Counted from the whole stretch's first letter, positions 9,819 to 54,856 are shown. The stretch is DNA of 63,848 nt, filler included, from Globobulimina sp. (GCA_003354225.1; 47 parts of 47 records of this genome joined end to end with filler, not necessarily neighbours in it), one strand, 5' to 3'. Program-made: numbers and translations. Notes: generated by a model not told the origin, from the letters alone.

Positions 9819-9889
9819 GTGCACATAGCTCAACGAAGAGCACTGGCTTATTAAACCCAGAGATACAGGTTCCAATCCTGTTGTGTACA
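9819..9889 (+). ncRNA. tRNA-like element (non-canonical, 8-nt anticodon loop)
   Basis: Acceptor GTGCACA/TGTGTAC, D stem GCTC/GAGC, T arm ACAGG-TTCCAAT-CCTGT; no D-loop GG. Confidence 0.7.
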
Positions 9890-10126
9890 GTCATGGCTAT
9901 CGCCACATCCACGGTTTGTATTGTATTCTATTTATCTTTCTATTTATAAATAATTTACTGTTCTATTTAATTAATAGTTCTATTGTTTATGCAGTTTGTT
10001 TTGCTTTGTATTAAATTATTTTGTTTTGCTTTGCTTATTTTGTATTTGTTTTATTTTATTTTGTTTTGCTTATTTTGCTTTGCTTTTGCTTTTAAAAGTA
10101 ATTATTTTGCTTTTAAAAACAAAAAA

Positions 10127-10327
10127 TATTCTCTTTGTTTAAGGATATAATTTTTTGTCTTTGTGCAAGGATATTTGTAATTAATCACTGCGCTCAATTA
10201 CTAGTAATTGAGTGCTTTATCGTAAATGAATTATTCTCTTTGAGTGTTTGTGCAAGGATATTTTTTTCCGTTTTGTGCAAGGATATTTGTAATCAATCAC
10301 TGTGCTCAATTACTACTAATTGAGTGC
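10127..10327. repeat. Two ~100-110-bp direct repeats, each ending in a palindrome
   Basis: ttgtgcaaggatatttgtaat.aatcactg.gctcaattacta.taattgagtgc occurs twice. Confidence 0.8.
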
Positions 10328-10556
10328 ATTTTTGTTTTCATAAACACATATTTAGTAAAGTTCGCATTCTCATTGTCATTTTGGATTATTTGCAAAAGGG
10401 TTTTTGCTTTTAGTTCATTTCTTCAATGAACGCTTTGATAATTGAAGAAAAAAAAACTTTTGTCATTTAGAAACATAACATTTTGCTTTCGATCGTCATG
10501 GCACTCAGCGAATTACAAATCAAATGCAATCTCAATCCAATGCACAGTCCACAAAC

Positions 10557-10627
10557 TCCTGCCTAGCTCAAGTAGAGCACTGGATAGATACATCCAGAAG
10601 ATTCAGGTTCAAAGCCTGAGGCGGCCC
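10557..10627 (+). ncRNA. tRNA-like element (non-canonical, 8-nt anticodon loop)
   Basis: TAGCTCAAGTAGAGC D arm, CTGGA/TCCAG stem, T arm TCAGG-TTCAAAG-CCTGA, 5-bp acceptor pairing. Confidence 0.65.
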
Positions 10628-10664
10628 CAACAAAGTATTTATTATTATAGGTATTTAGTATGGT

Positions 10665-10796
10665 TTCATGGACAGATTGGCGCAGTCTTTACGATATTGG
10701 ATCGCGTACAAACTTCACAATGACAGCGGCTGGAAAGGCATCAAAGTGATTCTGTCCGACGCCAATATTCCCGGCGAAGGCGAGCATAAAATCGCG
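10665..10796 (+). CDS. XRN2: 5'-3' exoribonuclease (XRN2/Rat1-type) exon fragment
   Basis: [44 protein letters not shown], the XRN N-domain PGEGEHKI motif; absent from the ORF track. Confidence 0.9.
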
Positions 10797-10896
10797 NNNN
10801 NNNNNNNNNNNNNNNNNNNNNNNNNNNNNNNNNNNNNNNNTTAATTAATTAANNNNNNNNNNNNNNNNNNNNNNNNNNNNNNNNNNNNNNNNNNNN

Positions 10897-11998
10897 ACCA
10901 GATGGCATCATATCCCAAGTACAACCAGTTGTTACATTTCCTAAACAAGCCCAAGTTCAAAAGCCGATACGCCAATCAGATGCCGTGGTAAAGTATGACA
11001 AACCCAGACAAGAAGAGGTAGATGTTGAAGAACGCGTGCCATCAGATGAATGTGTGCAAGTAATGGAAACACCTAAAGATTTATTTCGATCGTCATATGG
11101 AATGAGGCCTACGACACTTTCAGCCCAATCCATGGATACAAACCAAACAGAGAAACGTGAGACGGTACAAGGTTATGTGAACAGACATGCTAAACTCATT
11201 CAAACAATCACCAAACCTAAACCATTACCTCCCATAATCATCGTCGGCTCCAAAGCCAAGCAGATGGAGAAGCCCAAACCATTGTTTCGTTCGTTTCAAG
11301 GTCCAAAGCCAACAAATTTATCTCAGGAGGTGATTGATAAGAACAAACCAGGTCAAAAAGAAACTGACGAACCGGTCGAACATCAGATGGATAGACACGC
11401 TCAAACGATTGACGCTCTTAGAGTGGCACAGAAACAAGATGTAGAAATTGAACCAAAAACTTTGTTGCGATCAGAAATGGTGACCAATGGAAAAGCAACA
11501 GCTCTATCGACAGACATTATGGAACCATCGGGTCAAACCAAAGAGTCCTTAGAACCCATGGAGAAACAGTTGGATAAACAAGCGAAGGTTATTGAAGATG
11601 TTATATGTCGACAAAAGATCAAATCACCTACTGCAAAAGCAACACCGGCCCTTATACCAACGAAAACCATAGTTTCACTACCTCAGAAGACCGATGCAGC
11701 ACATGTTTGTAGAATTTCGACCCCTCAGATAAGCCCAGTTCCTGCACCGACAAAGACAATGATAGTACCATTACCTCCGAAAAGTTTGACACCAATTGAT
11801 ACTGGATCGACGCCACAAAAAAGGACGACCCCTATTCTTACCAAAAGGACAAATAAACCAATTGTTATGATGAAACAACATCAACCAACGACTATTAACA
11901 AGCCGACAGTGACACAAAATGGTGAAGTTGGACTCCCCAAGAATACGACGACAGAAACCAAAGTAGAAAAGACCAAGGATCCAGCTGAACAACAATGA
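10897..11998 (+). CDS. Unknown Pro/Thr/Lys-rich protein with three ~55-65-aa repeats, 5' partial
   Basis: PK.L(F/L)RS...(P/A)T.LS...(R/K)(H/Q)A..I unit occurs three times. Confidence 0.6.
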
Positions 11999-12333
11999 TT
12001 TATGTGACACAAATATATTTCTCTTACTGACTTTATAAATATTGATTTCTTACTGGTTTTGTTCTAAAACTAATAAAAATGATTACTTAATGCATTTTTC
12101 AGTAGATGAAACAGCAAAAATGTAGGGCTATCAGCATCGGCGATTGCATTGCAGTTCCNNNNNNNNNNNNNNNNNNNNNNNNNNNNNNNNNNNNNNNNNN
12201 NNTTAATTAATTAANNNNNNNNNNNNNNNNNNNNNNNNNNNNNNNNNNNNNNNNNNNNAAAACCCTTTGCGTGGCTCTATGGCTCGCTTGCAGAGCAGAA
12301 CCTTGTTGTTGAAAATTGGTAAAGTGCCGCAAA

Positions 12334-13520
12334 TCATGCGAGGGTTTTGATAATGGATTTGAATACGTATTCTAAGTCTGTATCTTTGATGATTTTTAAT
12401 TGTTTTATGTGCGAGATTGTGCTGAAATGCTTACTTAAATCCGTAGCTAACACCGAATATACACATTGTTTACGGAATTCTTTCTTATTCATTTTGTCCC
12501 ATTTCGAGGTGAAATCCATTTCGTTTTCGTATTTTTTGAGTGCAGCAAAGGTGTATTGCAAGTGATGATATTCTAATACAGATTGGTCTGAATATAGTAT
12601 GGCTTTCTCACTCAATATATTTATCTCAAATGCATTGTTATTGCCCGGATGATCTACGTCGTGAATGATAGCGGAGATAAACGCTGCAAATATCTGCAAA
12701 GTGGACATCATTTCCAATATGGATTCGTCCAAACAATCGATAAAGATCATAGTCGATAGCATCACTTCAGTCGCATGCATTCGATTATGATACGTATTAT
12801 TTTTATGATATGACCGCTCGATAAATAGCACAAAATTGTAGAATTTCTCAATGGAAATATTCAATTTCGACACAAAATCGTATTTTGGACGCAAGAAAAT
12901 GCACATAGCCGCATGTAATAATGGATGCTCAGTCAATGCATCCAATTCAATCGAATCCATACTACCATCAAAGGCCATGATCATTGCGGTTAACTTATCA
13001 ATGGCAGGTGTTATATGCAGTAATTTTCTCAACAAATTCTCGCCAGAAATCTCTATTAAAATTTCGTCCTTAATAATACCGACAATATCAACCTCACATT
13101 TAACATTCTTCTCATCCATTTCATCATATTTGCGCTCATTCTGCTCATCATCCATCGCATGTTTCTGCGGTGTGATGGCAAGTAATACATTTAACCGTTT
13201 GTCAGATTTCTGCGGCGATTCTGTATCATGCGATGTAACCGGCGTAATCAAGACATGTTTAATATCCTCCTCCACAGTGCCCTTTGTGGTGGGACTGGCA
13301 AAATCAAAGCGTGGCGTATTATAATTGTCCTGCATGGAATGCTTAGATAACAGCGTCTGTGCTAAAAAACGTTTGGTGTCCACATCTAATTCGTCATCCA
13401 ACTCGATTTTCTCCTCAATATTGCCTTTATAATGCGATTGGTTTTCTTGTTTAAAATACTGCCAATAATAAAAAATGAGGCCAGTGCTAAATGTGCCAGC
13501 CATTGCTTTTGCAAATTTTG
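12334..13520 (-). CDS. Class I cyclic-nucleotide phosphodiesterase, partial
   Basis: [41 protein letters not shown]. Confidence 0.95.
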
Positions 13521-13620
13521 NNNNNNNNNNNNNNNNNNNNNNNNNNNNNNNNNNNNNNNNNNNNTTAATTAATTAANNNNNNNNNNNNNNNNNNNNNNNN
13601 NNNNNNNNNNNNNNNNNNNN

Positions 13621-14882
13621 TTATGTCAAAATAAAAATATGACAGCTGTATGTACAGTATACTTAAGACATCAAGGAGCCAAAAATGCGTTAGATACAAA
13701 TACAAAAATTTGCCAGAGACTTGCAAACCATATTAATTGGTGCAAAATACGAAATTATAATATCATAATAGTAGGAGATTTTAATGGTCATATTGGCAAT
13801 GATGATTTGGGTATCATTGGCAATCATGATCCAATAAATAATAATGGACATATTATAAGAAATTTTATTAAAGATACAAATATGATATTAGCTAATAGAG
13901 ATAAAGAAACTACAGGTACATGGACATGGGGGTATCACAAGAAAAATACAAAACCACAAATATTAGATTTAATATTAAGAAGTGAAAATGTTATTAATGT
14001 AAATATTAATATTGACGAAGAAAATATTATATATGGAAATGGAAATAAAGACCACTGTTTTATACATGGCAAATTCAAAGTAAAATATAGATCAATATCA
14101 GGTGACACAGATATTAAGAAAAAAAGATGGAATATTAGGGATGATACGGATTGGATTATTTATAAAAAAGATATTAAAAGAAAATTAGAGGACAGACAAT
14201 CATTAAAAGATATTGATGAGAATGAAATAATAGATATTATAGAAAAATCGGGAGAAGAAACAATAGGATATAAAAATTATAAAATTAAAAAACCAAGAGA
14301 ATCAAAACAAATTCAACAAATATCATTAGAAATTAGAAATATTAGGAAAAAATTAAGACATAAATTAGAATTTAAAGGAAATTTAATTAATGAATTATTC
14401 ATAAAAATTAGAGAGAAAAAACAAATATTAATGAGAGCTGAAATGGCTAGAATAGAAAAAGCACATGATAAATGGATTAAAAATCCAAAAAGAAAATTTC
14501 ATCAATTATATGATACTATGAAAACTCTAAAAAGAGGAGTAATAGAAAAGGTAACATTAATTGATGATGATAAAAATCCAATCATAGGAGAAGAAAATAT
14601 TAAAGCACATATATCAGAATTTTGGGATGACATATTTACTTTAGGAATTTGGCCTGAGGCTAATGATAAGATTAAAAGACTTGGAATGAGTAATATCATT
14701 AAAGGAGCAGATAAATTAGATTTAGAAAGTGAAATAACAACTAAAGAATTAAAAGATGCAATTAATAAATTAAAAAATAACACTTCATCCGGATCAACTA
14801 ATTTACCACCAGAATTTCTTAAAAATTGGCTAATAGAGATGATAGAAACTGTTAAAATACTATTTAACAAATGGTACGATAC
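13621..14882 (+). mobile_element. LINE (non-LTR retrotransposon) ORF2: APE endonuclease plus linker to RT
   Basis: VGDFNGH, TWT, LDLIL and DH endonuclease motifs; ITTKELKDAINKLKNNTSSG pre-RT motif. Confidence 0.92.
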
Positions 14883-14982
14883 NNNNNNNNNNNNNNNNNN
14901 NNNNNNNNNNNNNNNNNNNNNNNNNNTTAATTAATTAANNNNNNNNNNNNNNNNNNNNNNNNNNNNNNNNNNNNNNNNNNNN

Positions 14983-16115
14983 TGAAGAAGGCGAAGCAAT
15001 CGCAGATAATAAATGGAAGCGATTACGATGCAAAACGACTACAATGACATATTCAACAACATGGGTGAAATGCATTTACATCATGGTTGCTGTTATCTGC
15101 ATTCCAATTGGTGTAATCACATACAATCTCTCCCAATCAGTTAAGCGTTCATTCTTTATACGTGACAGATATCTGCGAATAACCGTATCACTCCCAACCA
15201 TAGGTTGTCATACAAGAATTCCCGGCATATGACAGCATCTCAGCGTGTGCCTTGTCAGAGCACACAAAAAATGAGAGCTGGGGCAAAACCTGCGTCATTA
15301 ATTACACTTTGGAGCACGATTTCTCTCCACCCATCTATTTCCATTACAAATTAACTAATTTTTATCAGAATCACCGTTCCTATGTCAAGTCCCGCAGCGA
15401 GGATCAGTTGCAAAATAAGGATATCTATGATCTAGAACATTGTGACCCGAATGAGGTGAAAACCTCTCAAGTTGCAGCTTATAAAGGCCATGCTATGCTG
15501 CCGTGTGGATTGATTGCAAACTCCTTCTTCAATGACAAATATAAGGCCACTTACTTCGAATTAAGTGACGACTCTGCTCCCGTTGTAGTTCACTTTTGTG
15601 ATACCGCCCAATGTGCTGCAAACGAACAGGCTGACGGGGTCTCATGGAGTGAGGCCACCTGGTTCGCGTCACCCAATTGGGAGAATAGTGATATTGCATG
15701 GAAATCGGATGTAAATGGGAAATTTGAGGAAACCACACAGGTTACGGGCAAAACCAGTGATATCAACACGTTGCAGTCGTGGCAGAGGGTCACGTTGCCA
15801 GATACTGACGATGAGGATTTTATTGTGTGGATGAGAACGGCGACTATTGCCACATTCTCAAAGCTACATCGGATTATTAATGGGCAGAGCTTGAAGAAAG
15901 GATCGATTTTGCAAGTTACTATAAAGAATTATTTTGGCACTTCGACTTTTGACGGACAGAAATCAGTGTTGATTACTACCAATTCGTCGTTAGGCGGAAG
16001 GAATGATGTGTTGGGCATTGCTTTTATGATTATTGGGAGCTTGTCGTTGTTGACTGCGGTTTGTTTCCAATTATTAATACCACCTAAAAGGTCCACGGAT
16101 TTCCATGATATGTAG
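14983..16115 (+). CDS. CDC50: CDC50/LEM3 family P4-ATPase beta subunit
   Basis: YKLTNFYQNHRSYVKSR, PCGLIANSFFND, DFIVWMRTA, LGGRN; intron 15140..15203. Confidence 0.95.
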
Positions 16116-16360
16116 ATATTTTATATGTATTGTATTGTTTTTAACTTATTGTTTGTGTAACTTTTTTTTTTGATCAGTTCAGGGATTCGCACTATTGAGA
16201 GCGAATTAGAAACTGCGGTTGTTATGGATTATAGGAATGGGAATNNNNNNNNNNNNNNNNNNNNNNNNNNNNNNNNNNNNNNNNNNNNTTAATTAATTAA
16301 NNNNNNNNNNNNNNNNNNNNNNNNNNNNNNNNNNNNNNNNNNNNATATTTCAAAAAAACA

Positions 16361-16478
16361 TTGATTTTTTTAAATATTAATATTCCATAAATTTGATTTT
16401 TTTAAATATAAATATTTCATAAATTTGATTTTTTAAAATATTAATATTTCATAAATCCAGTTTAATATTCCATAAATT
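16361..16478. repeat. ~32-bp AT-rich minisatellite, probably intronic
   Basis: ttgatttttttaaatattaatatt(t)cataaat repeated about 3.5 times. Confidence 0.75.
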
Positions 16479-16511
16479 CATAATGATGTCAGAATGTGCG
16501 TCATAATATAG

Positions 16512-17324
16512 CGGATTTTAATGTCTTTACAAGATTGTTTCTGGTCTGCTTTTGATACAATACAACAACGAATTGAATTTGAACAAGCTGATAAATTGGT
16601 GATGGATAAACGTGCTCCAAATTCCAATGAAAATAATAATTCAAACTCAAACAATACTATTAACGCCGCATCAAATTCATCAAATTCGAATAGATCAAAT
16701 AATGTTAAACCTGGGATGTTTGATTGGGGAACAGAATGGGACCAAATAGCTTTTGACATAACAGCAATGTCAATGCGATGTCAGCCGCGTCATTCAACAA
16801 ATTATGCTCCATTGACTGCGCTAACAATGAAAGAACCTGTTTTAGATTCTTCAGCTGTTGTTGAACATGAATGGGATGACAATTATTACGATGATGAATA
16901 TGCAGCGTTAACGAAGCACTCCTTTGATGAAAGAATGGCAAATTTTAAAACTTTCAGAGCAAAATTAAAAGTTTCACTGCGTAGATCAAAGTTTGCAATG
17001 AAGAAAAAATGGGATGCAAAGCGTGGATGTGGTAAACAGGTAAAAGTTGGAGACCCAGTGGTGTTTAGAAATAGTAAAGGTAGCAGAACCAACGTTGTAA
17101 GAGCGAATCAAACGTGGCTACCTGAAACTGGATATGCATTATTACGACATACATCAGATGGTGGTGTTTGTAAAATTGATATTTTTGATAAATATAATAA
17201 TTTACTGAAAAAGGATAAGTTTGTAAGAGTTGAAAATTTAAAGTTTGATCCAACATATACGGCACAGAAAATAACTGGTCGTAAAAGAAAAATATCTGAA
17301 ATTGAGGATGAAGATTCTCAATAA
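16512..17324 (+). mobile_element. C-terminal part of a retroviral-type integrase (Ginger/Gypsy-like) with an SH3-like GPY/F-type module
   Basis: WDQIAFDI...MRCQPRHSTNYAP, then KKKWDAKR...VKVGDPVVFRN...W...VRVENLK; preceded by an AG acceptor at 16510-16511. Confidence 0.65.
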
Positions 17325-17974
17325 ATTGAGGATGAAGTGTATTCTCAATGTAATATTTGTTTATTTAATAAAATATTTTGTTTATTTAATATAAAAGTTG
17401 CGTTCAGTCCTATTCAGTCCATCCATTGTAAAAACCATTGAAAAAGATTATGCGTTAAGTATGAAAAAGCGTTAAGTATGATTATGAAAAAACATCTTAA
17501 GCGTTAAGTATAAAATGATGATATTTTAGTTTGCTGGATATTGTAAATGAGATCATTTTACATGGAACTCATGCTACAGAATTTTGATTTAATGCGTTAA
17601 AACAANNNNNNNNNNNNNNNNNNNNNNNNNNNNNNNNNNNNNNNNNNNNTTAATTAATTAANNNNNNNNNNNNNNNNNNNNNNNNNNNNNNNNNNNNNNN
17701 NNNNNTGCATACTCATACAAACCCATACAAACGCCAAATTATACGCGTTTAAAATAAAAACAATCCAAACCATTATACAAAATCTCAAAACCAATCCTTT
17801 CAAACCAATCTACAGGGAAAGTATCTTTTGGAATCTATCGTTTATTTAAACTGAGTTGTTTTTAGAATGTCCGAACATTTCACAATTCACCCCCGACTTT
17901 TCGGACTTTAGAATTGTACAAATAAAAATATAAAAAATGAATTATAGGTTATATAAAAACACTATCAATGCGTT

Positions 17975-18966
17975 TTAGCCACTGCACCATCTTCTTTTTT
18001 TAGGTGGTGCTACTGGTCGTACTCTCTCATTCAGATCAATTATATTTTGCATTTTTCTTATTTTTTTCGGTGGTGCGATTGGTTGTACTCTCTCATTCAA
18101 ATCAATTTTATTTTGCATTTCTTCTATTTTTTGTTCCAACAAAAATACCTTTTCTAAATTAATATCTTTCTTTGCTTCTCGATAACTGCAAACTGTACAA
18201 AATCGACAGGTATTACTATTAATATATGTACATTGCTCACATTCCCATTCACCAAATGTTTGCTGTACATCATTAATATCATTCCAATCCGGTCCATGGT
18301 ATTTTTCTCCATTGTCATCATATTTTTGTTCTTCATGTGTCGGCGTCTTATTATTATCTCTTCTTTTATTCATCACTGCTTCTGCTGCGGTTAAAAATAC
18401 ATTCCGTACATTACTCCCTGTTTTGGCACTACATTCACAATACATTGTATCGAATTTCTTCCAATCCGGATGTTTTATAATACTCACTGCCTTCACCTCG
18501 TCGGGTTTATCTTCAGCACCAACATTGTTTGCATGGTCTAACGCAAACCCACCGGCGAATTGTGTATCCAACAAATGTCCATCATCATTGTTGATGCATT
18601 CTTTGTCATTATTAAGTTTTCTTTCTTGTTGCTCCCTTCTTATATCACCTTTACATCCGACTAGTATAACAATCACTTCATCGCCAGCATAATTCTCAAT
18701 TTGTTTTCTCCATTTTGTGCAATTATCCAATGTCTTTTCATCTGAAACATCATAGCAAACAATAATTGCATCTGCTCGACGATAATAATTCCGGCACAAA
18801 CTTTGGTATCTTTCCTGACCTTAATATACAAATAATATATAATTATACATGATTTTGTTAGCTATGGCCCCGGCATTAGCATACCTGCAGTGTCCCAAAT
18901 TTCCAATTCCATAATAGAATTATCACTCAACTGTTCATTACGTAAAACATTATCAAACCCCAAACT
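17975..18966 (-). CDS. Rab-family GTPase with a RanBP2-type zinc finger in an extended C-terminus, 5' partial
   Basis: IWDTAG/QERY (intron 18820..18884), YYRRAD, VGCKGD, ECSAKTG; WECEQCTYINSNTCRFCTVC; ends WCSG*. Confidence 0.9.
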
Positions 18967-19066
18967 NNNNNNNNNNNNNNNNNNNNNNNNNNNNNNNNNN
19001 NNNNNNNNNNTTAATTAATTAANNNNNNNNNNNNNNNNNNNNNNNNNNNNNNNNNNNNNNNNNNNN

Positions 19067-23149: not shown

Positions 23150-23305
23150 CATCAATATATATAAGCATCAACATCAATGAAAACAGCTAATTCATTAAAT
23201 AATTTGAATATATATTTATATTATATGTTGAGATTGTTAAATTATTTATTGGATTAAGTTGATGTTGTTAAATTGCATTGATGTTGATGCTTATATATAT
23301 TGATG
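23150..23305. repeat. Inverted repeat / MITE-like element
   Basis: Perfect 30-bp IR: 23150-23179 versus 23276-23305. Confidence 0.85.
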
Positions 23306-24525: not shown

Positions 24526-25771
24526 TCAGCCAGGGAGTAAGTCTGGCTCCATGCTCACCGATTGCTGGAACATCCCGGCGAGGTTGTTTATGGTATCAAA
24601 CGAGATACCGTTTGCAAAGTGGAATGATCTATATTTTGCATATTGCGTCGAGTTGTAATGTACATTCAGATAGTTGGAGTTATTGGGATGCATTCTTCCA
24701 ATCTCTGCTAGCTTATCTGCTACATTATTGAATGGTTGCTGCTTTGGTTTAGTATGTGATTTTACTTTCCAAAGTATACTTTCGCTTCTTTTTATATACT
24801 TTTGTGTGTTTCTAAATAGATTGGAATGAGCTAATTTATCTATTCTATGTGGGGTGGTGATTAATGGAACAAACTTATACAGTGAATCGGTGAATATTAT
24901 CTTTCTACGATTAGTTGTGTCAATATCACAATATTTAACAAGAAACTCTGATTTGTGTATTGCAAATAGCTCACCAAAGTGGTTGGTTTGGGCTCCTATT
25001 GGTTGCGAGAAACAATGGACAGTGTTGTGATCTAATATGAATATGCCAATGCCTGTGGTATTAGTCCTCGGCTCATGTGATGAATCTGTTGCAATTATAA
25101 GGTCATTGGTATTTAATCTGTGCTTATGGGCATTCCATTCATTTATATTTCGATTTCGTGTATGATATAATGGCATTTTGGAGGGCATGGTAATGTGTTT
25201 GTTTCTCATTCTCGTGAGATTCAATGTATTTTGATTCAGGCGGTCGATATTATATAACCATCGATGAGTCTGTGATATTAAATTGCGATACAGCGTGTAT
25301 TTATGGACATTTATGTTTATTATTCTGTGTTTATATAGGAATGAATTGGTATCAGTGTCATAAACATTTGCACCGCAAAGGATTTTCCAAAATTGGGACT
25401 TCTGGACATTGACATTGTGACATAACTCAATTAATCGTTGCATATATAATTGGTTATGGATTTTATTTATGGCAGAGCCATTTTTGGCGAACTCAAAGCT
25501 GGCATGATACCAATAGTCTCGTCTTAGGCCATTGAGCACAGGACACATGACAGCAAGATGCAGCTCTAATGGTTTGTCAATGCGGCTATGACACAAGTTG
25601 CAGTATCTATTATTTTGATCAAAGTTATAAAACAACTCACGATATTTTCCAATCATTGGTTCTTTGACGTATTCCGCCAATTCATTCATTTCATATATAT
25701 TCATCGGTCTGTAATCACTGGTTACGTGATTTAGTATGTTTAATGGGTGATATTTATTCAGTTTGCTGAGG
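24526..25771 (-). mobile_element. 3' end of a LINE ORF2: CCHC zinc knuckle followed by RNase H
   Basis: CNLC...HLAVMCP; ATDSS, TNHFGEL, FTDS, KVKSH, NNVADKLA; stop followed closely by ...ctactac at the contig end. Confidence 0.85.
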
Positions 25772-31772: not shown

Positions 31773-32576
31773 TTAACGTCGTATTTTATTGATGGTAGTG
31801 TTGGACATTTTTGCTAAGTCAGAGAAGTCCAAACGGATATATATCTTTTGCCAACAATCTGTCGACCAACGTCCCCATCGGGCAATTAAATAGTCTCTCA
31901 TATTAGAGCGAGCTAAGTCAGTGGCTCTCCCAATTCGTAGTGAGTGGCTTCGGTACGTGGACCCGTCTAGGCCTATTCTGTTGGCTAAGACTTCTAATGT
32001 ATTATTGATACAGTCAGCGGTCATAGCTACTTTGTGTGATTTTTCAAAAATCAAATCATTGCGCTTCAAGGCTCGTCCCTTTTGCCTAGCTTTAAGTTGG
32101 CATAATCTTTGTAATAAATGTGGTCCGCATGTTGCTTTACCATGGACTTTACATGTGCAATCTACAGGCAATGTCTCATTTTTCTCGCCATATTGGTTAC
32201 ATTTGGATTTTATAATTTTTATGGCGACAGAAATTAATTCTCCGTTTTTATCGAAAAACCATTGTAGGTGTTTAAAACGTAGGGGGATGTCGCCCAAAGC
32301 TATGGTGCTAGGGCTCGATGTATATTCGCCTACTCGACAGCCCCACCAATAACCGACTGCTAAACAAGATGCTAATGTGACAGATAAAAGTGTCTCGGTT
32401 TCTAATAAAATCTTGATAGCAAGTTTCATATGTTTTAGACACCATGGTTTTCTAGACCGCTTTAAGCTAGGTCTCCATTTTTTATAACCAAGTAATTTCC
32501 GTCGGATAGCTGGGTGATGCTTTCTGACGAAAGTCAATCCATTATCATTCCAATATTTGCATAGAGCTGTTAGGCA
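31773..32576 (-). mobile_element. Tyrosine recombinase of a DIRS/Ngaro-type retrotransposon, 5' partial
   Basis: GCRVGEY, KSKCNQ, SHSLRIGRAT, GRWSTD...YIR (R-K-H-R-W-Y catalytic set). Confidence 0.9.
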
Positions 32577-36657: not shown

Positions 36658-36956
36658 NNNNNNNNNNNNNNNNNNNNNNNNNNNNNNNNNNNNNNNNNNN
36701 NTTAATTAATTAANNNNNNNNNNNNNNNNNNNNNNNNNNNNNNNNNNNNNNNNNNNNGGGATCAGCCCAAACACCAAAATCACGCACGCTCACCGGAACG
36801 TCACAATTCTTCGTATCGTATACATGTCAAATTTCACTCGAAGGATTATTCGTTCTCGTACAAAAAGTAAATACAGATCTATTATCAGCAGTCAAAGCAG
36901 ACAAAAATAAAGAGGAACAGATCAAGGGTAGAGAGATTGAAAGACAGATCGAAGCA

Positions 36957-38017
36957 TTGATAACAACAACCAAAAGCATAATTAATGATAGAATAGTTGC
37001 CGACGCTGATGCTAATATGGAAACACCTTTGAAACAAGCTGAACCAATTCCAAATCAGCAACAAGGTATAGATCAAAATATACTTATGCAATTTATGCAA
37101 CAACAAGCGCAATTGCAACGCGATGAAGCACGTGAACAAAGGAAGGTACACCAGGATCAAATAGAGTTGCAACGAGAACAAATGAATAAAAATGACAGAC
37201 ATGTTAGGTTGATGCAAGAACAAATAAACGAACAAAAACAAACAACTAACGATCAAATATTGATATTGCGTGAACAATTAAAACAACAAAAATTAGCAGA
37301 TGATGCACGTCTTGAAGAAATGCGAATGCAAAGAAGAGAGGGCAATACCCCAAGTGAAACAAGTAGTAGTAGAAACGGTAAAGGCACAGTTAAATTACCA
37401 TCGTTAACAATCGAACCGTTTGCAGGAGACATGTTGCGTTGGCAGGAATTCTGGGACCGATTTGACACGGCAATAAATAAAAACGAAAATTTAAGCGCAG
37501 TCGAAAAATTCAGCTACTTGAAAAGTTATCTTAGAGGTCCAGCACTTCGTATGTTAGATGGTATACAATTGACAGAACAAAATTACAATGAAGCTATAGA
37601 TCATCTTAAACAGAAATACAGTGACGAGGATCTCGTAATAACTACACATTTGAAAAAGTTGTTGAATTTACGGCCACCAACGGATGACGTAATACAATTA
37701 GAAAGATTTTATAATGAAGTGTCAAATCATTTTAGAAGTTTAAAAACATTTGATGTCTCAGCAAAGGGTCCATTATTTGTCGAAGTTATCGTAAGCAAAT
37801 TACCATCTGTTATGCAACAGAAATTAGTTACAAAACTAAAAGGACAGGAAGAAAAAATGAAATGCATACTTGAGTATATTAGCGACGAAATTAAAAAGCG
37901 ACAAATAATTAAAACAAGTACAAATGTGACACCATCGCAACAACGTGATACGGTCAATCAAACACGTAGTTTCCCCAATTTAAAATGGTCAGGCAATGAA
38001 AATAAAAACAGTGATCA
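36957..38017 (+). mobile_element. Bel/Pao LTR retrotransposon gag region (DUF1759-type)
   Basis: VKLP...PFAGD...WQEFWDRF...LSAVEKFSYLKSYLRGPA...NYNEAIDHLKQKY. Confidence 0.9.
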
Positions 38018-44917: not shown

Positions 44918-45393
44918 TCAAATTGGCTGTTTATTATCTCTTTGAATTTGGTGAAATTCGGCATTGGTTTATACGCATAAAATGTAGTTACAACACCAAA
45001 GGCAATGTTTCTGTCATATTTGCCAGCCACGCCGGCTAAGCCACCAATCATTTCTCTGTCGCTGTTTGGTGGGCGCGAGTTATCGATGTCATTGTCACCA
45101 AAGAGATAAACGGGCCACGCTGAGGTCGTAATGTCTGGGTTTTGGAGGTATAATGTGTGTGTTGCAGTTAATTGATTGTCTGAGAATCTATCTATTTGAT
45201 ATATTATGCATCCATAGCTAACGTCGTCATTTTTATTGTTGTTGTTGTTGTTATTGTTGTGGTTGTTATCGCGTGCAAGTTTGGTGATGGATTTATTTTG
45301 TTCGCCACATATTTCACACTGGTCGTTGAGTGCGGATTGTTGAAAGGTGCAACGGGAACAATCCCATTTGCTCTCTGATACCACAGAAGCCAT
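44918..45393 (-). CDS. RanBP2-type zinc finger fused to an FGDN-motif domain, 3' partial
   Basis: WDCSRCTFQQSALNDQCEIC; VYLFGDN...GGLAGVA...IAFGVVT. Confidence 0.75.
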
Positions 45394-45458
45394 ACTTTGT
45401 TTATAAAATGTAACTAATTTGAAAAAAAAACTTACTGAAAATCGTCGGTAAGGTCAAA

Positions 45459-46130
45459 ATGAGCAAAGCAATGGATGGAGAGATAAGAGATGTTGTTTTT
45501 GGTTATGTGCATCGTGTTAATCAGCGTTTCAACATTCCCATTCCGGTAAAAAATATTATTTTGGTGTATTATGATGATAATTATGTGTTTGATAAAGAAC
45601 ATCATTCTGACAAAATCATCATTGTTAATGGTGGTAAATCCATCAGAAAGCTTAAATGTGCCGGATTTGGTCAAGTTTCGTGCATATTCGGACAAGAGAT
45701 AACAAATAAAATCTGCAATAAATTTGAGATCCAAATGAAATGGAAGAAATGTTGTAGCAATTTTTATTTTGGGTTTACAACGTCGACACTGAAGGAATCC
45801 ATCAAAAATTGGAACCAACCATTCGGAAAAGGACAAAACTGGGAGCATTCTGTGAGTATTTTAGTTGGAAATCATTATAATTCTTTTTATCTCAGTGATA
45901 AAAATAACAAATCCAAACAATTAACAGATTATTTATCACCACATAATTTCAAAGAAAACGATTTGTTTAGTTTTGTGTTTGATTTTGTGAAGGATTCGGT
46001 AGTGCTATATCATAATAATAAATATGCCACCAAAATATCATTAAATAAGAAAAGCAAAATACTGACTGGATTTTCATTGGGATCGAGACAAAAGGAAGAA
46101 ATCCAAGTCATTAAATCTTTGTTATCATGA
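45459..46130 (+). CDS. 'FGY' family SPRY/concanavalin-like protein, complete and intronless
   Basis: VVFGYVHR...IPIPVKNIILVYY; FKENDLFSFVFDF. Confidence 0.7.
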   Translation: MSKAMDGEIRDVVFGYVHRVNQRFNIPIPVKNIILVYYDDNYVFDKEHHSDKIIIVNGGKSIRKLKCAGFGQVSCIFGQEITNKICNKFEIQMKWKKCCSNFYFGFTTSTLKESIKNWNQPFGKGQNWEHSVSILVGNHYNSFYLSDKNNKSKQLTDYLSPHNFKENDLFSFVFDFVKDSVVLYHNNKYATKISLNKKSKILTGFSLGSRQKEEIQVIKSLLS

Positions 46131-46277
46131 CTGTACGTTTAATATATTCTTAAATCAAAGTTTTTCAGTGATAATCTNNNNNNNNNNNNNNNNNNNNNNN
46201 NNNNNNNNNNNNNNNNNNNNNTTAATTAATTAANNNNNNNNNNNNNNNNNNNNNNNNNNNNNNNNNNNNNNNNNNNN

Positions 46278-47537
46278 GAATGAATGTCATAAATATTGTT
46301 CATACGGTGGACATTTGACCATTGCGGGTAAAGAGAAATGGTTAATTCAGATAAATAGAGGGAAAAATATATTAATTGGTATATGTGGAGTGACTGACAA
46401 TTATTTGTTACCAGATAAGATATATACATTCAGTGAATATGGATATGGCATGAATAATAATGGCAATATCTATAATAATAATATGTTAATGAGAGGTGGC
46501 AATGGTGGATATAGTGAGGGCGATGTAATTATTATTAAATTAGATTTAATTAACGGTGAATTGAAATTTAATCCAAAATTATGTGAAAATATTACAGTTA
46601 AAATAAGCAAACCAAGTCACAATAATAAATTGAGAGGATATCGATTAGCGGTATATTTACATGATATTAATGATAAAATAACAATGATTAATGGTAACAA
46701 ACGAAGAAAAAATCGATCTTTCGAACCGTCAACACCGGGCAATACCACCTGCAGTGATGACGAACATGGCATGTTTGAATTTAATGGTTCCTTTGAGTCA
46801 GATGGCGAGATTGGTGCTGATTATACAACGCTTTTTAGTCCAACAATGAGAGACATATTCACTGAGAATGTATTGCCAAATCCACAAACTAAATTAATTA
46901 ATTTAAGTGCGTTCCATTCCAAATAAATAATATTTTTTCATTTGCATTTATTTTTATTGTTAGATGATGATAATATTTTGATGGCATCTTTGATGAAATG
47001 TTATTGTGAAAACAAACGAAAATATATCGACGTGGCTGGTATATTAACCAAAGATTATTTGTATTTTGTAAACTGTAAAAATTATCAGATATGGTCGCAA
47101 TTTAAAAATAGAACAAAAATTGATAATGTGTTATACAATGACAATGATACGGGAATTAATAGCAACATCAAAATACAGCAAAAACATGCCATTGAAATGA
47201 TTGTCAACTTAGGATATAACCAACAGGAAAACACAAAAATAATACAATTTCTAGTCGGCAAAACAAAAAACGATATCAAACTACAAATATTATTAAATAG
47301 GGATAATAATATCACATCGCTGGCGTCATTGTTTAAATTAAATGACGAAGAAACATATCATATGCCGACAATAAAAAAAATAATAATACCTCAATTGTTT
47401 CAGTTTAATTCAGTGGAATATATAGAATATATTTTAAATGATATTGAATGGGATCAAAATGATAACTTAATTACAATGAAACAATATCATACATTAAATG
47501 AAATGGATAATATCCTTCAACGACAAAAACAATATTT
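46278..47537 (+). CDS. SPRY-domain protein fragment, probably two exons
   Basis: ILIGIC, YGYGMNNNGNIY, GYSEGDVIIIKLDL. Confidence 0.65.
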
Positions 47538-47637
47538 NNNNNNNNNNNNNNNNNNNNNNNNNNNNNNNNNNNNNNNNNNNNTTAATTAATTAANNNNNNN
47601 NNNNNNNNNNNNNNNNNNNNNNNNNNNNNNNNNNNNN

Positions 47638-48560
47638 ATATGTTGTTCCGTTAAGAGTATAATCAAATTTAATAGCAAAAGAGTTCAATGAAGTTGGTCT
47701 ATTCACAATAAAATCACATACATTATCAATAAAATCATCCATTGGATTATAAAATTTTCTCTCATATGTTCTGTACATTCCATGTATGCTTTTTATTGTA
47801 TACATTGCCTGTATGTTATTCAAATGACACACAGTGAGACAATGATTCTTTCTTAAATATAAAAGTAAATCAGTTGCAATATTCATTGATAAAACATCAA
47901 TTTTTATTTCCGATAAATTATAAAATACTGCATTCCAATCCAAACTTTTTGAAAACAATGAACAATCATAATCATAGACCCTGCGAAAATACCCAAAAGC
48001 GGGAATTTATATTGAATGGAATTTAGAGTGGGGTATAATTTTCGTACATTTTTCAAAAACAAATTTAATTTTGCACATAATATTTCGTCATTAAATAATA
48101 TTTCATTCGTAAACATTGTGTCTTCGAAATACAATGATAATTTTTTAAATTTTGATTTTTTTTGCAATGATTGATTAAAAATTGAAGCTGATAATAATTT
48201 ATCAAACTCTGTTTTAAATGTATGAATCTGAAATAATTGAATTGGCATTGAACATGATTCTAAATTTGGTATATTCCATAACCAAAAAATTGGATGAGGT
48301 GTTGCTGTCAAATCACATTTTATTGGGAGTAGAGTAGAAAGCTCTGCCTGTTGAATGGTTAATACCTTTAAATTTGAACGTTTTATCAAATATTTGTTGT
48401 TATTTTTTGATATATCAACAACTGATGATGGCTTTTCTTGGTTAATCCAAACAGATTTTATTTGATCCAAAGCTTGACTGCGTCCAGAAACTGTCAAAAA
48501 TGTTAATTGTTGAATGTTGATATTGTTTAAAAGACTATCATTCAGATCTCGAACATGCAT
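47638..48560 (-). CDS. Unknown Leu-rich (LRR/F-box-associated-like) protein, frameshifted
   Basis: Two overlapping minus ORFs with L..L.I/L..L.L patterns. Confidence 0.4.
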
Positions 48561-48997
48561 GTTTTTTAATCTTAATAATGTGAATAATTTTGGCCAGTTT
48601 GACTTAAATATTTTTCTCTTTCTTTGAGTGTTTGATACTTTATGTCCCGTAATTGATTGAATATTTCTATATTTATTTATATATTTAAGTGCATATTTAT
48701 TCGAGTATTTATTTTCCCATAATCCAGTAAAGTAGCAATTTCTGTGTCTATTAACTTTATTTGTGTGGCAATCAAATACAGATACGTACGGTCAAGAATG
48801 ACAGCTGACTGGTCAGGGAAATAAGCTGATCAGTCAGGTTATAATTACCTTAATTAAATGCATCAAATATGATCTGATCGGGGCAAATCACGTCAGANNN
48901 NNNNNNNNNNNNNNNNNNNNNNNNNNNNNNNNNNNNNNNNNTTAATTAATTAANNNNNNNNNNNNNNNNNNNNNNNNNNNNNNNNNNNNNNNNNNNN

Positions 48998-50257
48998 CGT
49001 GATATCGAATATGCGATCATATAACCGGTCGTTACAGAAAATGATCAAAATGAAAACGATTACACTGGCCTCCATTCCAAAGAAATCCACAAAACATCTC
49101 ACTTTGTCTACGGATATTATTGAATTGAATCAAATCTTGGACAATTCCACCAAATATATCGATCATTTGCGAACTGAAAAAAGGGACATTGTCAAAAATC
49201 ATTATAAAAATATCCAAATATCTGTACGATTATCAAAGAAACGGAAATTATTAAATTTATGGAAACAGCGATGTAACGAAAGACAAAATAAACGCGATAT
49301 TATGCAGAAATTATGTATGATGCAATACAAACGGCAATGTCGAGATACATTTGCTAAATTACGCATTGATAGGATTACGACAAATAAATTGGAATGTAAA
49401 CAGAATATATTTACGAAAACAAAGCAATGCTATTTATACTTAATTGCGTTTTTATTATATAAATTTATGCATTTACGCGTTGAAAATAAAAAATGTAAAA
49501 ATGAGAATGAAAAATATAATATATTCATTAAGGAAAAAACAAAGTATTTCCATACAAAAATATTGAACAATACGATAAAACATAGACTGACATTAAATTC
49601 AAAATATACGCGCTTCCTAAAAAAGGATATGTTGAAAAACTGGAAAAGTATAAACCAAATCGCTAAAATCAGAGAACATTATAAAATCACATATGCGTCA
49701 AAGGAGAAACAAAATATTATTTCCCAACATTTCTCATCGTGGTATATCACCACAAAACAAAATAAAGCTAAAATATCCGTATTATGTCATATTATCAATA
49801 CCCAAACAAATAAATTATTATGCAAATCACTGAACAAATTACAAACCTTTGCTGCTAATAATAAATATCACAGGTTTGCCACACAAAAATATATGGATAA
49901 TAGCATGAAAATATTCGATAAGAATATACAAAAACGAATATTTAAAGCATGGCTGAACTTATACCATCGGAGATTGACACAAAAACAACACCTAAATAAA
50001 TATTTGAATCATAGGAAAGCAAAGATATTACAACGTGCATTTGACAAATTCCAATTGAAATTACAGCAACAAAGATCAGTGCATTTCTTATCGAGATTAA
50101 CATCGCAACAACGAACCACAGACACATTACGCGAACAATTGACGCTAACTAAAGATATGAAGTATACATTCAGTGATTGGAGGGACACTGCACATTCACA
50201 GCGCAAATCAGACATTGCGGTGAAGGCAATGCGGAAAATATATAGAAATGTTACATT
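48998..50257 (+). CDS. Sfi1-like repeat (centrin-binding type) helical protein, partial
   Basis: Recurring (L/F)..W(K/R/L/Y) motifs: LNLWK, LKNWK, FSSWY, FKAWL, FSDWR. Confidence 0.6.
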
Positions 50258-50899
50258 NNNNNNNNNNNNNNNNNNNNNNNNNNNNNNNNNNNNNNNNNNN
50301 NTTAATTAATTAANNNNNNNNNNNNNNNNNNNNNNNNNNNNNNNNNNNNNNNNNNNNTCCGGCCGCAAAGTACCCCAGGGACCCCCGCAGCGCCGCGCGT
50401 GGTAACAGGCACGGTAGTAGGAATAGCAGCGGTGGCAGTAGTATTAGGAATAGTAATAGTAGTAGTAATAGTAGCAGCAGTAGCAGTAGCAGCCGCAGTG
50501 GGAGTAGTAACAGTATTAGTCGTATTCACCGTAATAATAGTGTTGCACCACTGACGCCGTATGTGGAGAGTCGCCCTTTGACGCCGCCGCGCGGTGGATG
50601 GGAAGATGCGACCCTTGACATCGCAGTGCCATGAGTTACAAGATTCGAAGACGTAAGACAATGATTAAGAATAGAAGCAAATAATCGTGATGTTTAATTA
50701 ATATTTTTTTTAATTACAGTATTATGAAAACAGGGATCTTTTTGTCCAGAAACGGTTTAAATATCCGACCTAAAAAACAAGATTAATTTTCACAACGTGA
50801 GGAGTTTTCGCTGTCGTTTTCAATCCTTTCGTGAAATGATGTTGAAATTAATTGGGCATTTAGTAACAATAAATTATATGTTAAATGACGCAATTTATA

Positions 50900-51617
50900 T
50901 AATTGATAATGAAATTGATGTTCGTATTGTGGCGGATGACAACGAGCTTTGTAATGTGGGACGGATAGAATTTTATGACGGTGAAAATTGGGGATCATTT
51001 AGTGATTGTTCCATGCAAATGACTCATGACATTGCTTCTTCAATTTGTCAAACATTAGGTACCAAAATAACAAAATACAGACATATAATTATATTAATTT
51101 ATACAATATTATATAGGATGGGACCGAGCAGAATCTTTTCACCATGGTCCTTATGCAAATAATACAGATCCAAGTCCAACCACACCACAATACATAGCTT
51201 ATTCAAGTATTTATTGCCCAGATATCTGCAGTGCGTATGATTGTGATATTTGTGTAAATTGTCAAATATCAAATGATTTTGATAGTAAATGTTCAAATAT
51301 GTCCATCAATAAAGTACATTCATCGTATGATATTTATGTAAGGTGTGGCAATGTTGTGGCTAATCCATCATCGGATTTATATAATTGTACTGATTATATT
51401 TATGCGGCGAATACCGCTGCAAAACAAATCTATAATAATACAGAATGGCATTCCGATGCGTTTGGTTCATGTAACGGTGCGTTTCAAGGTGATGATAGAG
51501 AGAAACATAGCGATTTGTGGAAATTATTAGTTGCTGTGGGAATAATAGTTGCTGTGGTTTTATGTATGCTCATTTATTGTAAATCGAAGAGACGAATGCC
51601 ACATAAAAAATTTACGA
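50900..51617 (+). CDS. SRCR-like domain single-pass membrane protein, multi-exon
   Basis: VRIV...GRIEFYDGENWGSFSD...ASSICQTLG; later DIYVRC and a TM helix; introns near 51059-51116 and 51236-51285. Confidence 0.7.
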
Positions 51618-51717
51618 NNNNNNNNNNNNNNNNNNNNNNNNNNNNNNNNNNNNNNNNNNNNTTAATTAATTAANNNNNNNNNNNNNNNNNNNNNNNNNNN
51701 NNNNNNNNNNNNNNNNN

Positions 51718-52577
51718 TGAAGCTCACTATGATCGCTATAAACCCGATTTAAATCCCATGCAACCGATATATCATAACCATTTTGTAAAAATCTGCTTTG
51801 TTGTTCCACCAAAGTTGCATATTTTTTATAAGACATTAATTCCAAATCGCGTTCATGTAAATTCTTAATCAATTGTTTCCCGAATGCATCATTTGGCAAA
51901 ATCTGTTCATAAATACTGAAACAACAACCATTTGTAAATAATTTGGCTGTGTCTCTTATAATAATCTCTGATTTCTGCCATGGGATATAAATTAATACGC
52001 ATTCAGATATAAATAGGGTTGGATACGCATAATTTATCAATTTCCTGTCATTTAAATATTTTATAATCTCATTCCATTTGGTCAAATCTCCCGGGATTAA
52101 TACGTATTTATCACTAAAAATGGTGGCGGTTTTTATATCGATTTGGGGTTTGGAGCCTAAAATTTTAGCATTTAAAAATAAGTTTGCGTTATGATTTAGT
52201 GACATTATTTTGCGTGAACAGGTTTGATAAATATCAATTTCTATAAATTTTGCCAACGTTTTATCGAAAAGCTGTGGATATAAATCGTGTAATCGCCAGA
52301 ATGTAGTATCAATACCGCCGCCTAAACTTATTATTTGTTTTGGTGAGCCTTTGATGCATAGATTTGCTTTCAAAAAATCAACTATTATTTTATCAAAGGA
52401 TGCAACGCGAACATAATATCCACGATTTATTATTGGCGATCGTCGAACGTGTTTTTTATTTTTAAACAATTCTTCTAAAAATTTATCTTCGTAATATTTT
52501 AATCGTACACATGATAATTTGCTCAATATCGCATCATCTGCGGTGGCAGCGACTGGCTCAAGAGCTTGGCGACGCAT
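51718..52577 (-). CDS. LCMT1: Leucine carboxyl methyltransferase 1 (PP2A methyltransferase), 3' partial
   Basis: TADDAILSKLS, RSPIINRGYYVR, QIISLGGGIDT, PTLFISECVLIY, DAFGKQ. Confidence 0.93.
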
Positions 52578-53178
52578 TCTCCTTTTTAGACAAGACTGTA
52601 AAGATAAGATTGTCGAAAGCAGTTTTTTGAGTTTAAGCATATGATATAAAATAAAAAAAGTGTTAACCATGGATTAGTGCTTTAAAAAAATGGAACTGGG
52701 ATGAGACAAATGCAATTAGTTGGTTAAGGGTTTAGCCCCGGTCTTGTTTGTGAAAAACAATATTTATTGTTTACGCTTGCTGCTAGTTTTCCATACATAA
52801 ATCTTCTTCTATTTTAATCCTAATAATTATATAATGATAATAAACCATTAATGCTTTAATAATCTATGTTCCTTTTGTTATTTTGAAAGCGCTCCATGCT
52901 CCATGTGAACCTCAGCTAAAACAGTAACATTTTGAAAACTTATCAGTCAATGCTCTCGATAATGTCTCTGAAAGTTNNNNNNNNNNNNNNNNNNNNNNNN
53001 NNNNNNNNNNNNNNNNNNNNTTAATTAATTAANNNNNNNNNNNNNNNNNNNNNNNNNNNNNNNNNNNNNNNNNNNNCATTATAATTTGTAAAATACAACG
53101 TGATAAAGATGCATTTTCACGTTATATTATAAATAATTTTATATTATATAAATAATAATATCATCCATTCCATTCCAT

Positions 53179-53260
53179 ATCTCACCGTAGGATTCGAACC
53201 TACATCCATTTGGTTTGTGTTTCATTCAAACCAATGCTCTGTCAATTGAGCTAGGTGACC
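53179..53260 (-). ncRNA. tRNA-like element with an extended anticodon arm
   Basis: TAGCTCAATTGACAGAGC; 8-bp stem TTGGTTTG/CAAACCAA; T arm GTAGG-TTCGAAT-CCTAC. Confidence 0.7.
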
Positions 53261-54787
53261 AATTGGATGTGGAGGACTATTTTTCAAATGACTTTTTGAT
53301 TGCATATACATGCATAGATAGGAGAGGAAGGAGTACTTTTAATCAATTCACGCTCCTTGCATGCAATGCACTAAGTGTTCTTCGAAGTTTTAAGTATTAG
53401 CTCTCAGAAAATAGTTAGTTAGCAGTAGTCAATTAGTTGATTGCATTTACAAACTGCTTCTATAATATGTTAGATATATTTTCATGAATTCCATCTTAAT
53501 TTCAAATTGAAGAATAAAATATTGTGATAATTTATTAAATTTTGTTGTTCTACTCTGCACTTCCATGATATCAACTCATATTTTGATAATCAAACGTCTG
53601 GATCTATGTATATATGCACATATATTATCCAATACCATTTTCCTATGATACCATGACAGTGCCTTTGGTGGGAATAAAATATGTTCTAATGTCAAATCAA
53701 TGGTATATTTCTCAAATATTTCCGCTACACAACTCAAAAAAAAATGTCTTTCCTCAGCATATTTAGTACATTCTATCATATAATGATATACAGTTTCTTT
53801 GATTCCACAGTTTCTTTTCGCACGCGAGTGATAATATTGATATAGTGAGTATACTGACCCGAGCCAATAGAGATTCCAACCCATACATAACCTCACACAC
53901 GAACACAAACACCTCAGATCAAACAGACTCGGATATAGTGGATCTATCAATGATTCCAAATCAAAAAAGGAAAGACAATGAAAGTGCGATCACAAATCAG
54001 AAACCACAAAAGATTAGAAAAAGATATCACTCCCACCCAATGAAGAAACGGAGAAAGCCACAGCCGCCAAAATAGCCAACCAATCAATAACTCCGTCCCT
54101 ACATTAATCCATTTTTTTTCAAGTAATAAAAAATCGAATTTAAATTATAGCTTTACAATACTTATAACAGCATATAGATCAGGTCGATACTACTATAAGT
54201 AGTCTACAATAAATCCAATGAGTGCTTGTGAGTGTAACAATAAGCAATCTACGGTTTACCTTACACAATCTTGCTTGACCCAATCCAAACCATTAGACTA
54301 CTGCTAACTAACTATTTTCTGAGAGTGAACTCAAANNNNNNNNNNNNNNNNNNNNNNNNNNNNNNNNNNNNNNNNNNNNTTAATTAATTAANNNNNNNNN
54401 NNNNNNNNNNNNNNNNNNNNNNNNNNNNNNNNNNNCGAACATATAATTTTTTGGGTGCTTTCTTTCCGTTGAGATCAACCAATTGAATGTGTTCCAAATC
54501 ATCGCAAATGCTTCATTTTTAATTATTTTATGATTTATTTGTTGTAATTGCTGCGCTCGATATTTTAATTTATGACATTCCGTTATTTTTAACACACATT
54601 GAGACTGAACATATATTGTATTATTATTCGCTTCAATATTATTTGTGGATAATAACAGTTTAACAATACGTTTCCTTGGTTTTGCCGAGGAACAATATTT
54701 TTTCATCACCACGCCAGAGGTGAAATATTTAATATAATCATATCAACAAACCTGTAATTACCTGAATTAAGGCGCCATACCGCCAAT

Positions 54788-54856
54788 ATCCCACGCCAGG
54801 ATTTGAACCTGGATCCCTGCATAAAAGCAGTGCTCTTCTAATTGAGCTACGTGAGA
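54788..54856 (-). ncRNA. tRNA-like element with a shortened anticodon arm
   Basis: Acceptor TCTCACG/CGTGGGA; CTGC-TTTTAT-GCAG; T arm CCAGG-TTCAAAT-CCTGG. Confidence 0.7.

Follow-up and report, generated by a model that had tools for sequence, protein, structure and literature searches.

We analyzed a 63,848-nucleotide (nt) stretch of a Globobulimina sp. assembly (GCA_003354225.1), here called the window, in which 47 contigs of about 1,260 base pairs (bp) each are joined by N spacers and which, with 34% G+C, has the composition of an AT-rich eukaryote. It contains four elements shaped like transfer RNA (tRNA), here E1 to E4. Our analysis indicates that they are probably the tRNA-derived heads of several families of retroposons resembling short interspersed elements (SINEs), together with later DNA-level duplicates, in a foraminifer-like eukaryote; “SINE head” had been one of several options in an initial annotation of this DNA, and it fits. 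Such repeats are commonplace in genomes, and the four elements do not constitute a new class of structured RNA. E1 to E3 belong to multicopy families with definable unit boundaries, one copy is an insertion bracketed by a target-site duplication (TSD), tails and a templated CCA follow heads, the anticodon loop varies freely, and the outer acceptor pairs have decayed.

Features of the four elements and their units (window coordinates) are as follows.

9819..9889, + strand: E1, tRNA-like head; acceptor stem 7/7 paired, D loop of 6 nt without GG, anticodon arm of 18 nt, fold z score −3.44
9750..9990, + strand: E1 repeat unit; leader of about 47-78 nt, head and 3' body of about 85-100 nt; the repeat comprises all three parts
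9991..10110, + strand: T/G-rich simple-repeat stretch 3' of the E1 unit; 9994-10094 masked as repeats in contig mapping
10557..10627, + strand: E2, head of the very abundant family B; acceptor stem 5/7 paired, D loop of 5 nt, cloverleaf-like fold with z score −3.14
10508..10634, + strand: E2 subfamily unit; 49-nt leader, head, CCA directly after the acceptor strand, short A-rich tail
53179..53260, − strand: E3, head of family C; acceptor stem 5/7 paired, D loop TTGACA, 5-bp anticodon stem with a 15-nt loop
53077..53178, − strand: E3 3' tail; (ATGGA)n-like repeats, then AT-rich sequence; the contig end cuts the tail
54788..54856, − strand: E4, orphan element; acceptor stem 7/7 paired, D loop of 8 nt without GG, 4-bp anticodon stem with a 6-nt loop, fold z score −4.53

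Structure of the elements and search for further copies

Most of what the initial annotation had read from the four elements is correct: their coordinates, the motifs common to all of them, anticodon arms of 18, 18, 25, and 14 nt (E1 to E4), the lack of GG in all four D loops, and T stems that are fully paired in each element and different from one another. Its statement that the acceptor stems mostly pair holds completely for E1 and E4 (7/7), whereas only five of the seven pairs are formed in E2 and E3. The anticodon loops measure 8, 8, 15, and 6 nt, and none of the elements combines a 5-bp stem and a 7-nt loop with U33 and a purine at position 37; the 8-nt loop of E2 lacks U33 in register. 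The motif TAGCTCAA occurs exactly four times in the window, each time in one of the elements (chance expectation, 1.41; 6 of 100 shuffles reach four). Exact GGTTCNAANCC occurs five times, namely in the four elements and at 60856-60866, where no stems surround it. The combination of TAGCTCAA..GAGCA and GGTTCNAANCC, corresponding to the A-box and B-box regions, is found in every one of the four window copies and in 18 of the 19 copies aligned below, the exception being L018b, which reads GGTGC in the B-box region.

Three of the elements score above the Rfam tRNA gathering score of 29 bits (E1, 53.1; E4, 50.1; E3, 39.8), while E2 has no Rfam tRNA match even when a 201-base stretch is searched alone at an E value of ≤10. 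ARAGORN calls only E1, with a 4-base “anticodon” in an 8-nt loop, and E4, with a 2-base one in a 6-nt loop. The minimum-energy fold is a cloverleaf in all four elements, with z scores against shuffles of −3.1 to −4.5, and these structures are well beyond chance. A run of TTTT, taken as an RNA polymerase III (Pol III) terminator, is absent within 85 nt 3' of any of them; the first one follows at +110 for E1 and at +86 for E3, and none is found in the available 169 nt after E2 or 352 nt after E4. According to Rfam, no small nuclear RNA (snRNA), 7SL, or other small RNA gene adjoins any of the four elements.

Searches within the window pointed to no further member of the set. All-against-all BLAST of the 47 contigs showed that they share no flanks, an Rfam scan of the window at an E value of ≤10 gave no additional tRNA-like match, and the five B-box-like sites inspected outside the elements (at 2220, 11300, 29518, 53872, and 60856) have no surrounding stems. 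Further copies were collected with a strict pattern, which was derived from the shared motifs with about 30 D- and T-arm positions fixed and was run on collections of viral and metagenome contigs. Two loci on viral contigs proved to be tRNA-like but unrelated. The metagenome contigs yielded 18 pattern loci, 13 of which lie on PJEL01 records and carry 14 matches; the other five (L003, L005, L010, L015, and L016) are unrelated bacterial, phage, or organellar tRNAs, including a real tRNA of 74.5 bits at L016, and were excluded from all counts. The PJEL01 records are described as unassigned contigs of a Globobulimina-associated metagenome (PMC6783311). With one copy found by BLAST (L018:115-194) added to the 14 matches, 15 extra copies are present on the 13 records, and together with the four window elements they form the 19-copy set used below. 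ARAGORN with default settings recognizes no canonical tRNA at these 13 loci and calls only the L008 and L013 copies, both with a 4-base anticodon. A covariance model built from the 19 copies gives E2 a score of 76.9 bits; run over the window with filters off, it found no further convincing copy, and the best extra match (61050-61119; 13.3 bits; E value, 0.27) is regarded as due to chance.

Families, copy abundance, and traces of retroposition

The 19 copies sort into four lineages, which are family A (E1 and L008), family B (E2 and eight others), family C (E3 and six others), and E4 alone. Copies of the E2 and E3 families are dispersed among unrelated flanks, whereas those of the E1 family are repeated together with their flanks.

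Family B carries the clearest traces of retroposition. In locus L009, perfect 20-nt direct repeats (239-258 and 446-465) bracket a 187-nt insert composed of a 15-nt leader, a 65-nt head, CCA, and a tail of short AT-rich repeats. CCA directly follows the acceptor strand in six of the nine family B copies, and a seventh has one extra C before it. In L004, L012, L018b, and L009, A-rich linkers of differing length lead to a common AT-rich 3' end. In most copies homology is confined to positions 10559-10623 of the window, that is, it stops at the edges of the tRNA-like part; E2 itself shares at least 49 nt of upstream sequence with L006 (93% identity over 10508-10634) and L014 (92% over 10508-10663). 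The anticodon loop is between 4 and about 20 nt long; outside it, the heads are about 80 to 93% alike.

Copy abundance was approached by mapping the contigs of four public runs to the contig at 9535-10796 with at least 80% likeness. In run X1, summed depth reaches 19,531 over 10567-10609 inside E2, against 8.9-13.9 for long single-copy pieces of the same contig, a contrast of three orders of magnitude, although summed contig depth is not a copy number. Around E1 (9750-9921) it is 135-253, compared with 13.5 upstream. The clipped ends of other copies in the run contigs read as A-rich tails just 3' of E2, and in other run copies the same D arm is preceded by a different acceptor 5' strand. One contig from a second organism (run X4) matches the E2 unit from 10472 to 10634 with two differing letters, the match ending at 10634, and another X4 contig contains E1-like sequence over 9818-9884 only. 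From the density of elements in the window the initial annotation had predicted a very large family, a prediction that agrees with the E2 family depth (about 19,500 versus about 9-14) and with the 15 extra copies on 13 records. Just upstream of the E2 unit, at 10395-10480, lies a separate, very abundant repeat (summed depth, 12,474 in X1 and 1,581 in X4) with a short hairpin-like inverted repeat at about 10420-10450.

In family C, E3 shows 87 to 92% identity with its six relatives, or 83% over a longer stretch, and homology extends to 53077 in L011 and to 53138 in L020. All copies have (ATGGA)n-like tails, every copy has one to three acceptor stem mismatches, and the loops of 14 to 16 nt stand on a 5-bp stem, except in L013, where the arm is shortened. 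The D loop reads TTGGCA or TTGGTA in five of the six relatives; because these keep the GG, its absence from E3 is read as decay, shared only with L017. Retained A- and B-box regions go together with an A-rich or simple-repeat tail in families B and C, as in a SINE.

Family A has another composition. E1 and L008 are 82.5% identical over 9741-10058, a region that includes a leader of 47-78 nt, the head, a 3' body of about 85 nt, and the T/G-rich repeats. Substitutions number 1/42 in the near leader, 3/71 in the head, and 4/78 in the downstream body, and all three in the head are in the anticodon loop. A degenerate second E1-type head (L008:121-183, − strand; 23.8 bits with the 19-copy model) follows the intact copy at a distance of about 210 nt and keeps the acceptor 5' strand and the 5' half of the D arm, the remainder having been replaced. 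In the window, 10134-10218 and 10247-10330 are direct repeats, 87% alike; both contain a palindrome, of which GCTCAATTAC forms part, and both have a GTGCAAGGATAT motif in front of them. The latter motif is also found 3' of the degenerate second head in L008. This arrangement suggests that E1-type units are followed by a longer composite repeat.

AAAT stands just upstream of the head in 9 of the 19 copies, from families A, B, and C (in one case shifted by one base), and the acceptors are similar. We also observed several other repeats near these heads. In L007, a family C head (392-472, − strand) and a family B head (500-565, + strand) stand head to head, 27 nt apart, and the latter is followed at 569-919 by a minisatellite of about 25 or more units of 12-13 nt. 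Family C heads at two loci are followed by tandem repeats of 37-39 nt that contain a GC-rich hairpin each (L018:207-326 and L007:304-377). A 53-nt stretch, 83% alike, is found at 54961-55013 and at L004:218-270, that is, 105-175 nt upstream of the E4 and L004 family B heads in the same relative orientation; it may be due to chance or represent a shared upstream repeat.

Paired stems and competing explanations

Several observations weigh against an origin by SINE-like retroposition, in addition to the limit on summed depth given above. Flanking direct repeats of at least 11 nt were found in only one of the 19 copies (L009), and searches for TSDs around the four window copies found none. The leaders upstream of the tRNA-like part (47-78 nt shared in the E1 unit and at least 49 nt in the E2 unit) also speak against it, since a classical SINE begins at the tRNA 5' end; with this shared upstream sequence, the E1 and E2 units may owe their spread to DNA duplication or to a larger repeat that contains them. 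A partner long interspersed element (LINE) with a matching 3' end was not found, the 18-nt tail motif of family B having no match in the window with up to three mismatches. For E4, multicopy status is unsupported, as it has no close relative among the collected loci. Moreover, 14 of the 15 extra copies were retrieved with the pattern that fixes about 30 D- and T-arm positions, and conservation there is therefore partly built in.

Pairing itself also counts on that side. Over the acceptor, D, and T stems of the 19-copy alignment, in which the D stem and the inner T stem were fixed by the search pattern, 89.1% of the cells are paired, and none of 500 shuffles reaches the observed pairing or covariation, in a control that ignores the relatedness of the copies. 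The T stem is paired in 19/19 copies, among which four pair types occur; pair 5:68 is formed in every copy, by G:C in 10 and by A:T in 9. Families B and C are distinguished by five fully compensated stem differences (5:68, 49:65, 50:64, 27:43, and 31:39), with no uncompensated difference in those inner stems. The variable pairs 49:65, 50:64, and 5:68 distinguish the families and do not vary inside any of them, apart from two compensated exceptions that likewise weigh on that side: the close relatives L019 and L007+ (the family B head of L007) have T:A and A:T at 49:65, and at 5:68 the A:T of six family C copies is replaced by G:C in L017. The outer acceptor pairs behave differently, being unpaired without compensation in 16 (1:72), 8 (2:71), and 5 (3:70) of the 19 copies.

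The initial annotation had taken the differing, perfectly paired stems as compensatory change and hence as a sign of a selected, nontranslational structure. Our results do not support this step. The four elements belong to different lineages, so that the differences among their stems are differences between lineages, which may have been inherited from different parent tRNAs or source genes; the head of E1 and L008 is no better conserved than its flanks (3/71 versus 1/42 and 4/78); and the outer acceptor has decayed without compensation.

Nevertheless, an explanation by selection has to be weighed, according to which the elements are nondecoding tRNA-like RNA genes, with a cloverleaf selected for a cellular role (a Pol III noncoding RNA, an RNase P/Z signal, or a TFIIIC/insulator site) and with dead copies as a by-product. 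It can draw on the cloverleaf folds of all four elements, on the T stem and pair 5:68, which stay paired throughout the set, and on the fact that families B and C have similar acceptors and the upstream AAAT in common, although compensated changes separate their T and anticodon stems. The double changes of L019/L007+ and of L017 against the rest of family C, as well as the placement of all three E1/L008 head changes in the anticodon loop, point the same way, the templated CCA of family B implies tRNA-like processing of the source RNA, and the E1 unit, with its conserved leader, head, and 3' body up to the T-run, resembles a small gene of about 180 nt. We nonetheless judge this explanation unlikely. 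An intact acceptor stem is generally held to be important for RNase P/Z processing and CCA addition, and it is the outer acceptor pairs that are broken in families B and C, 1:72 in most copies. E1 and L008 have accumulated substitutions at the same rate in head and flanks, the control that ignores relatedness and the fixation of the D arm and inner T stem by the search pattern reduce the weight of the pairing, and the two compensations were picked out post hoc, with a chance of about 5% each by a rough estimate; in one of them, the L007+ T arm possibly came from an E1-like copy by conversion. A second explanation, that the elements are decayed tRNA pseudogenes that were never mobile and spread by segmental or tandem duplication only, best suits E1 and E4: the sequence shared by E1 and L008 extends 47-78 nt upstream and about 170 nt downstream, L008 contains another, degenerate head at a distance of about 210 nt, the orphan E4 has a fully paired acceptor and lacks a tail, and no TSD surrounds any window copy. 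For the set as a whole it is quite improbable, given the family B copy with a 20-nt TSD, the CCA, A-rich linkers, and common 3' end of that family, the restriction of homology to the tRNA-like part in most of its copies, and the thousandfold depth of E2 over single-copy pieces.

That the elements are working tRNA genes with odd loops or short noncanonical introns (E3 bearing an intron and E1 decoding quadruplets) is very improbable. ARAGORN with introns allowed does call E3, L007−, L011, and L020 as Val(GAC), removing 8 nt to leave a 7-nt loop, and E1 and E4 reach 50 to 53 bits with the Rfam tRNA model. The removed 8 nt lie inside the anticodon and not at the canonical 37/38 site, however, and the calls disagree between copies, L017 being called Ala(TGC); we therefore rejected E3 as an intron-bearing tRNA. 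The one to three acceptor mismatches per family C copy, an E1 loop that differs between paralogues, the lack of U33 in register in E2, the absence of the D-loop GG, and the absence of TTTT within 85 nt downstream are further points against decoding.

Retroposition of tRNA-derived heads, which we prefer, could have proceeded as follows. The ancestors would have been Pol III-type tRNA genes, whose internal promoters persist as TAGCTCAA..GAGCA (A-box, D arm) and GGTTCNAANCC (B-box, T arm). From what is generally known of SINEs, a few source copies would be transcribed by Pol III from these internal boxes, and the source RNA would at least partly mature like a tRNA, with CCA added to the template RNA, which would explain the CCA in the copies. 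A LINE-type endonuclease/reverse transcriptase may then copy the RNA into new sites, producing TSDs, CCA, A-rich linkers, and simple-repeat tails. The anticodon loop would be free to vary in sequence and length because nothing decodes, and the stems would still pair because the copies are young and inherit the pairing of their source; decay would be visible where recent descent does not mask it. The E1 and E2 units with their long leaders probably spread further as DNA duplicates or within larger repeats.

Plain neutral decay does not account for three points: the variability of the anticodon loop, which far exceeds that of the flanks, the two compensated changes between close relatives, and the AAAT and similar acceptors of families A, B, and C. 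They therefore leave room for selection on the structure of source genes. It is conceivable, if doubtful, that the source genes of the superfamily are nondecoding tRNA-like Pol III genes in which the cloverleaf is selected and the anticodon loop is free or driven to vary. If this is true, the source RNA, matured like a tRNA, may have a cellular role of its own, and thousands of dead copies are its by-product.

Genomic surroundings and relation to known systems

Open reading frames (ORFs) of the window encode ordinary eukaryotic domains (thiolase, cyclic-nucleotide phosphodiesterase, CDC50, Ras, PP2C, and Josephin). Besides these, there are fragments of retroelements, as follows.

13621-14880, + strand: LINE-type endonuclease domain, retroelement ORF
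59874-60656, + strand: RVT_1, retroelement ORF
24529-25770, − strand: RNase H, retroelement piece
31776-32576, − strand: tyrosine-recombinase-like piece, below the Pfam cutoff
36759-38015, + strand: DUF1759, retroelement piece

These fragments are candidates for the origin of the reverse transcriptase by which the tRNA-derived repeats would be moved. Imperfect long palindromes (self-inverted repeats, 72 to 79% alike) are located at or near contig ends, at 5451-5787, 23150-23305, and 56657-56883.

For annotation, tRNA-like matches with odd anticodon arms should be treated as tRNA-derived repeats and masked, in this assembly and probably also in those of related foraminifera, and should be neither counted as tRNA genes nor reported as new RNAs. 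A documented family with a TSD, a templated CCA, and several subfamilies would be a small but useful addition to the repeat libraries of Rhizaria. Because the E2 unit is nearly identical in the second organism (X4), the family could supply insertion markers between close species. Our literature searches found no published description of SINEs for foraminifera or Reticulomyxa, and the word SINE is absent from the main text of a recent rhizarian genome paper (PMC13746701).

Nondecoding cloverleaf RNAs are known from several systems. The mascRNA and menRNA of MALAT1 and NEAT1 (PMC9777231) and the tRNA-like RNA of Arabidopsis GUT15 (PMC6152437) are described as single conserved loci within longer Pol II transcripts, whereas the elements described here exist as hundreds to thousands of dispersed copies with tails and, in one case, a TSD. 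In trypanosomatids, tRNA-like elements are reported to supply A and B boxes to adjoining snRNA genes (PMC4950102). Our elements are likewise degenerate and tRNA-like and have kept both boxes; they differ from the trypanosomatid elements in having no adjoining small RNA gene by Rfam.

Among mobile sequences, tRNA retropseudogenes and CCA-bearing tRNA-derived retroposons form a known class for comparison. The CCA after the acceptor in family B (6/9 copies, plus one with an extra C), followed by A-rich sequence, is what would be expected from a processed, CCA-tailed template. Unlike in tRNA retropseudogenes, the source is here already nondecoding, with loops of 4 to about 20 nt, and the subfamilies of this very large family have 3' ends of their own. 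Several coexisting families of tRNA-related SINEs with short TSDs are described for Aspergillus fumigatus (AfuSINE2; PMC5063351). The closest known kind is the tRNA-derived SINE (SINE2/tRNA, including the “simple” type of head and tail). Our elements depart from it in the leaders of some units (15 nt in L009, as fixed by the TSD, and at least 47 nt in the E1 and E2 units), in that no partner LINE was found here with the tail motif in the window, and in the foraminifer-like protist host. They share with it a head with A and B boxes, several coexisting families, numerous dispersed copies, a 20-nt TSD in one copy, A-rich or simple-repeat tails, and a degenerate anticodon arm.

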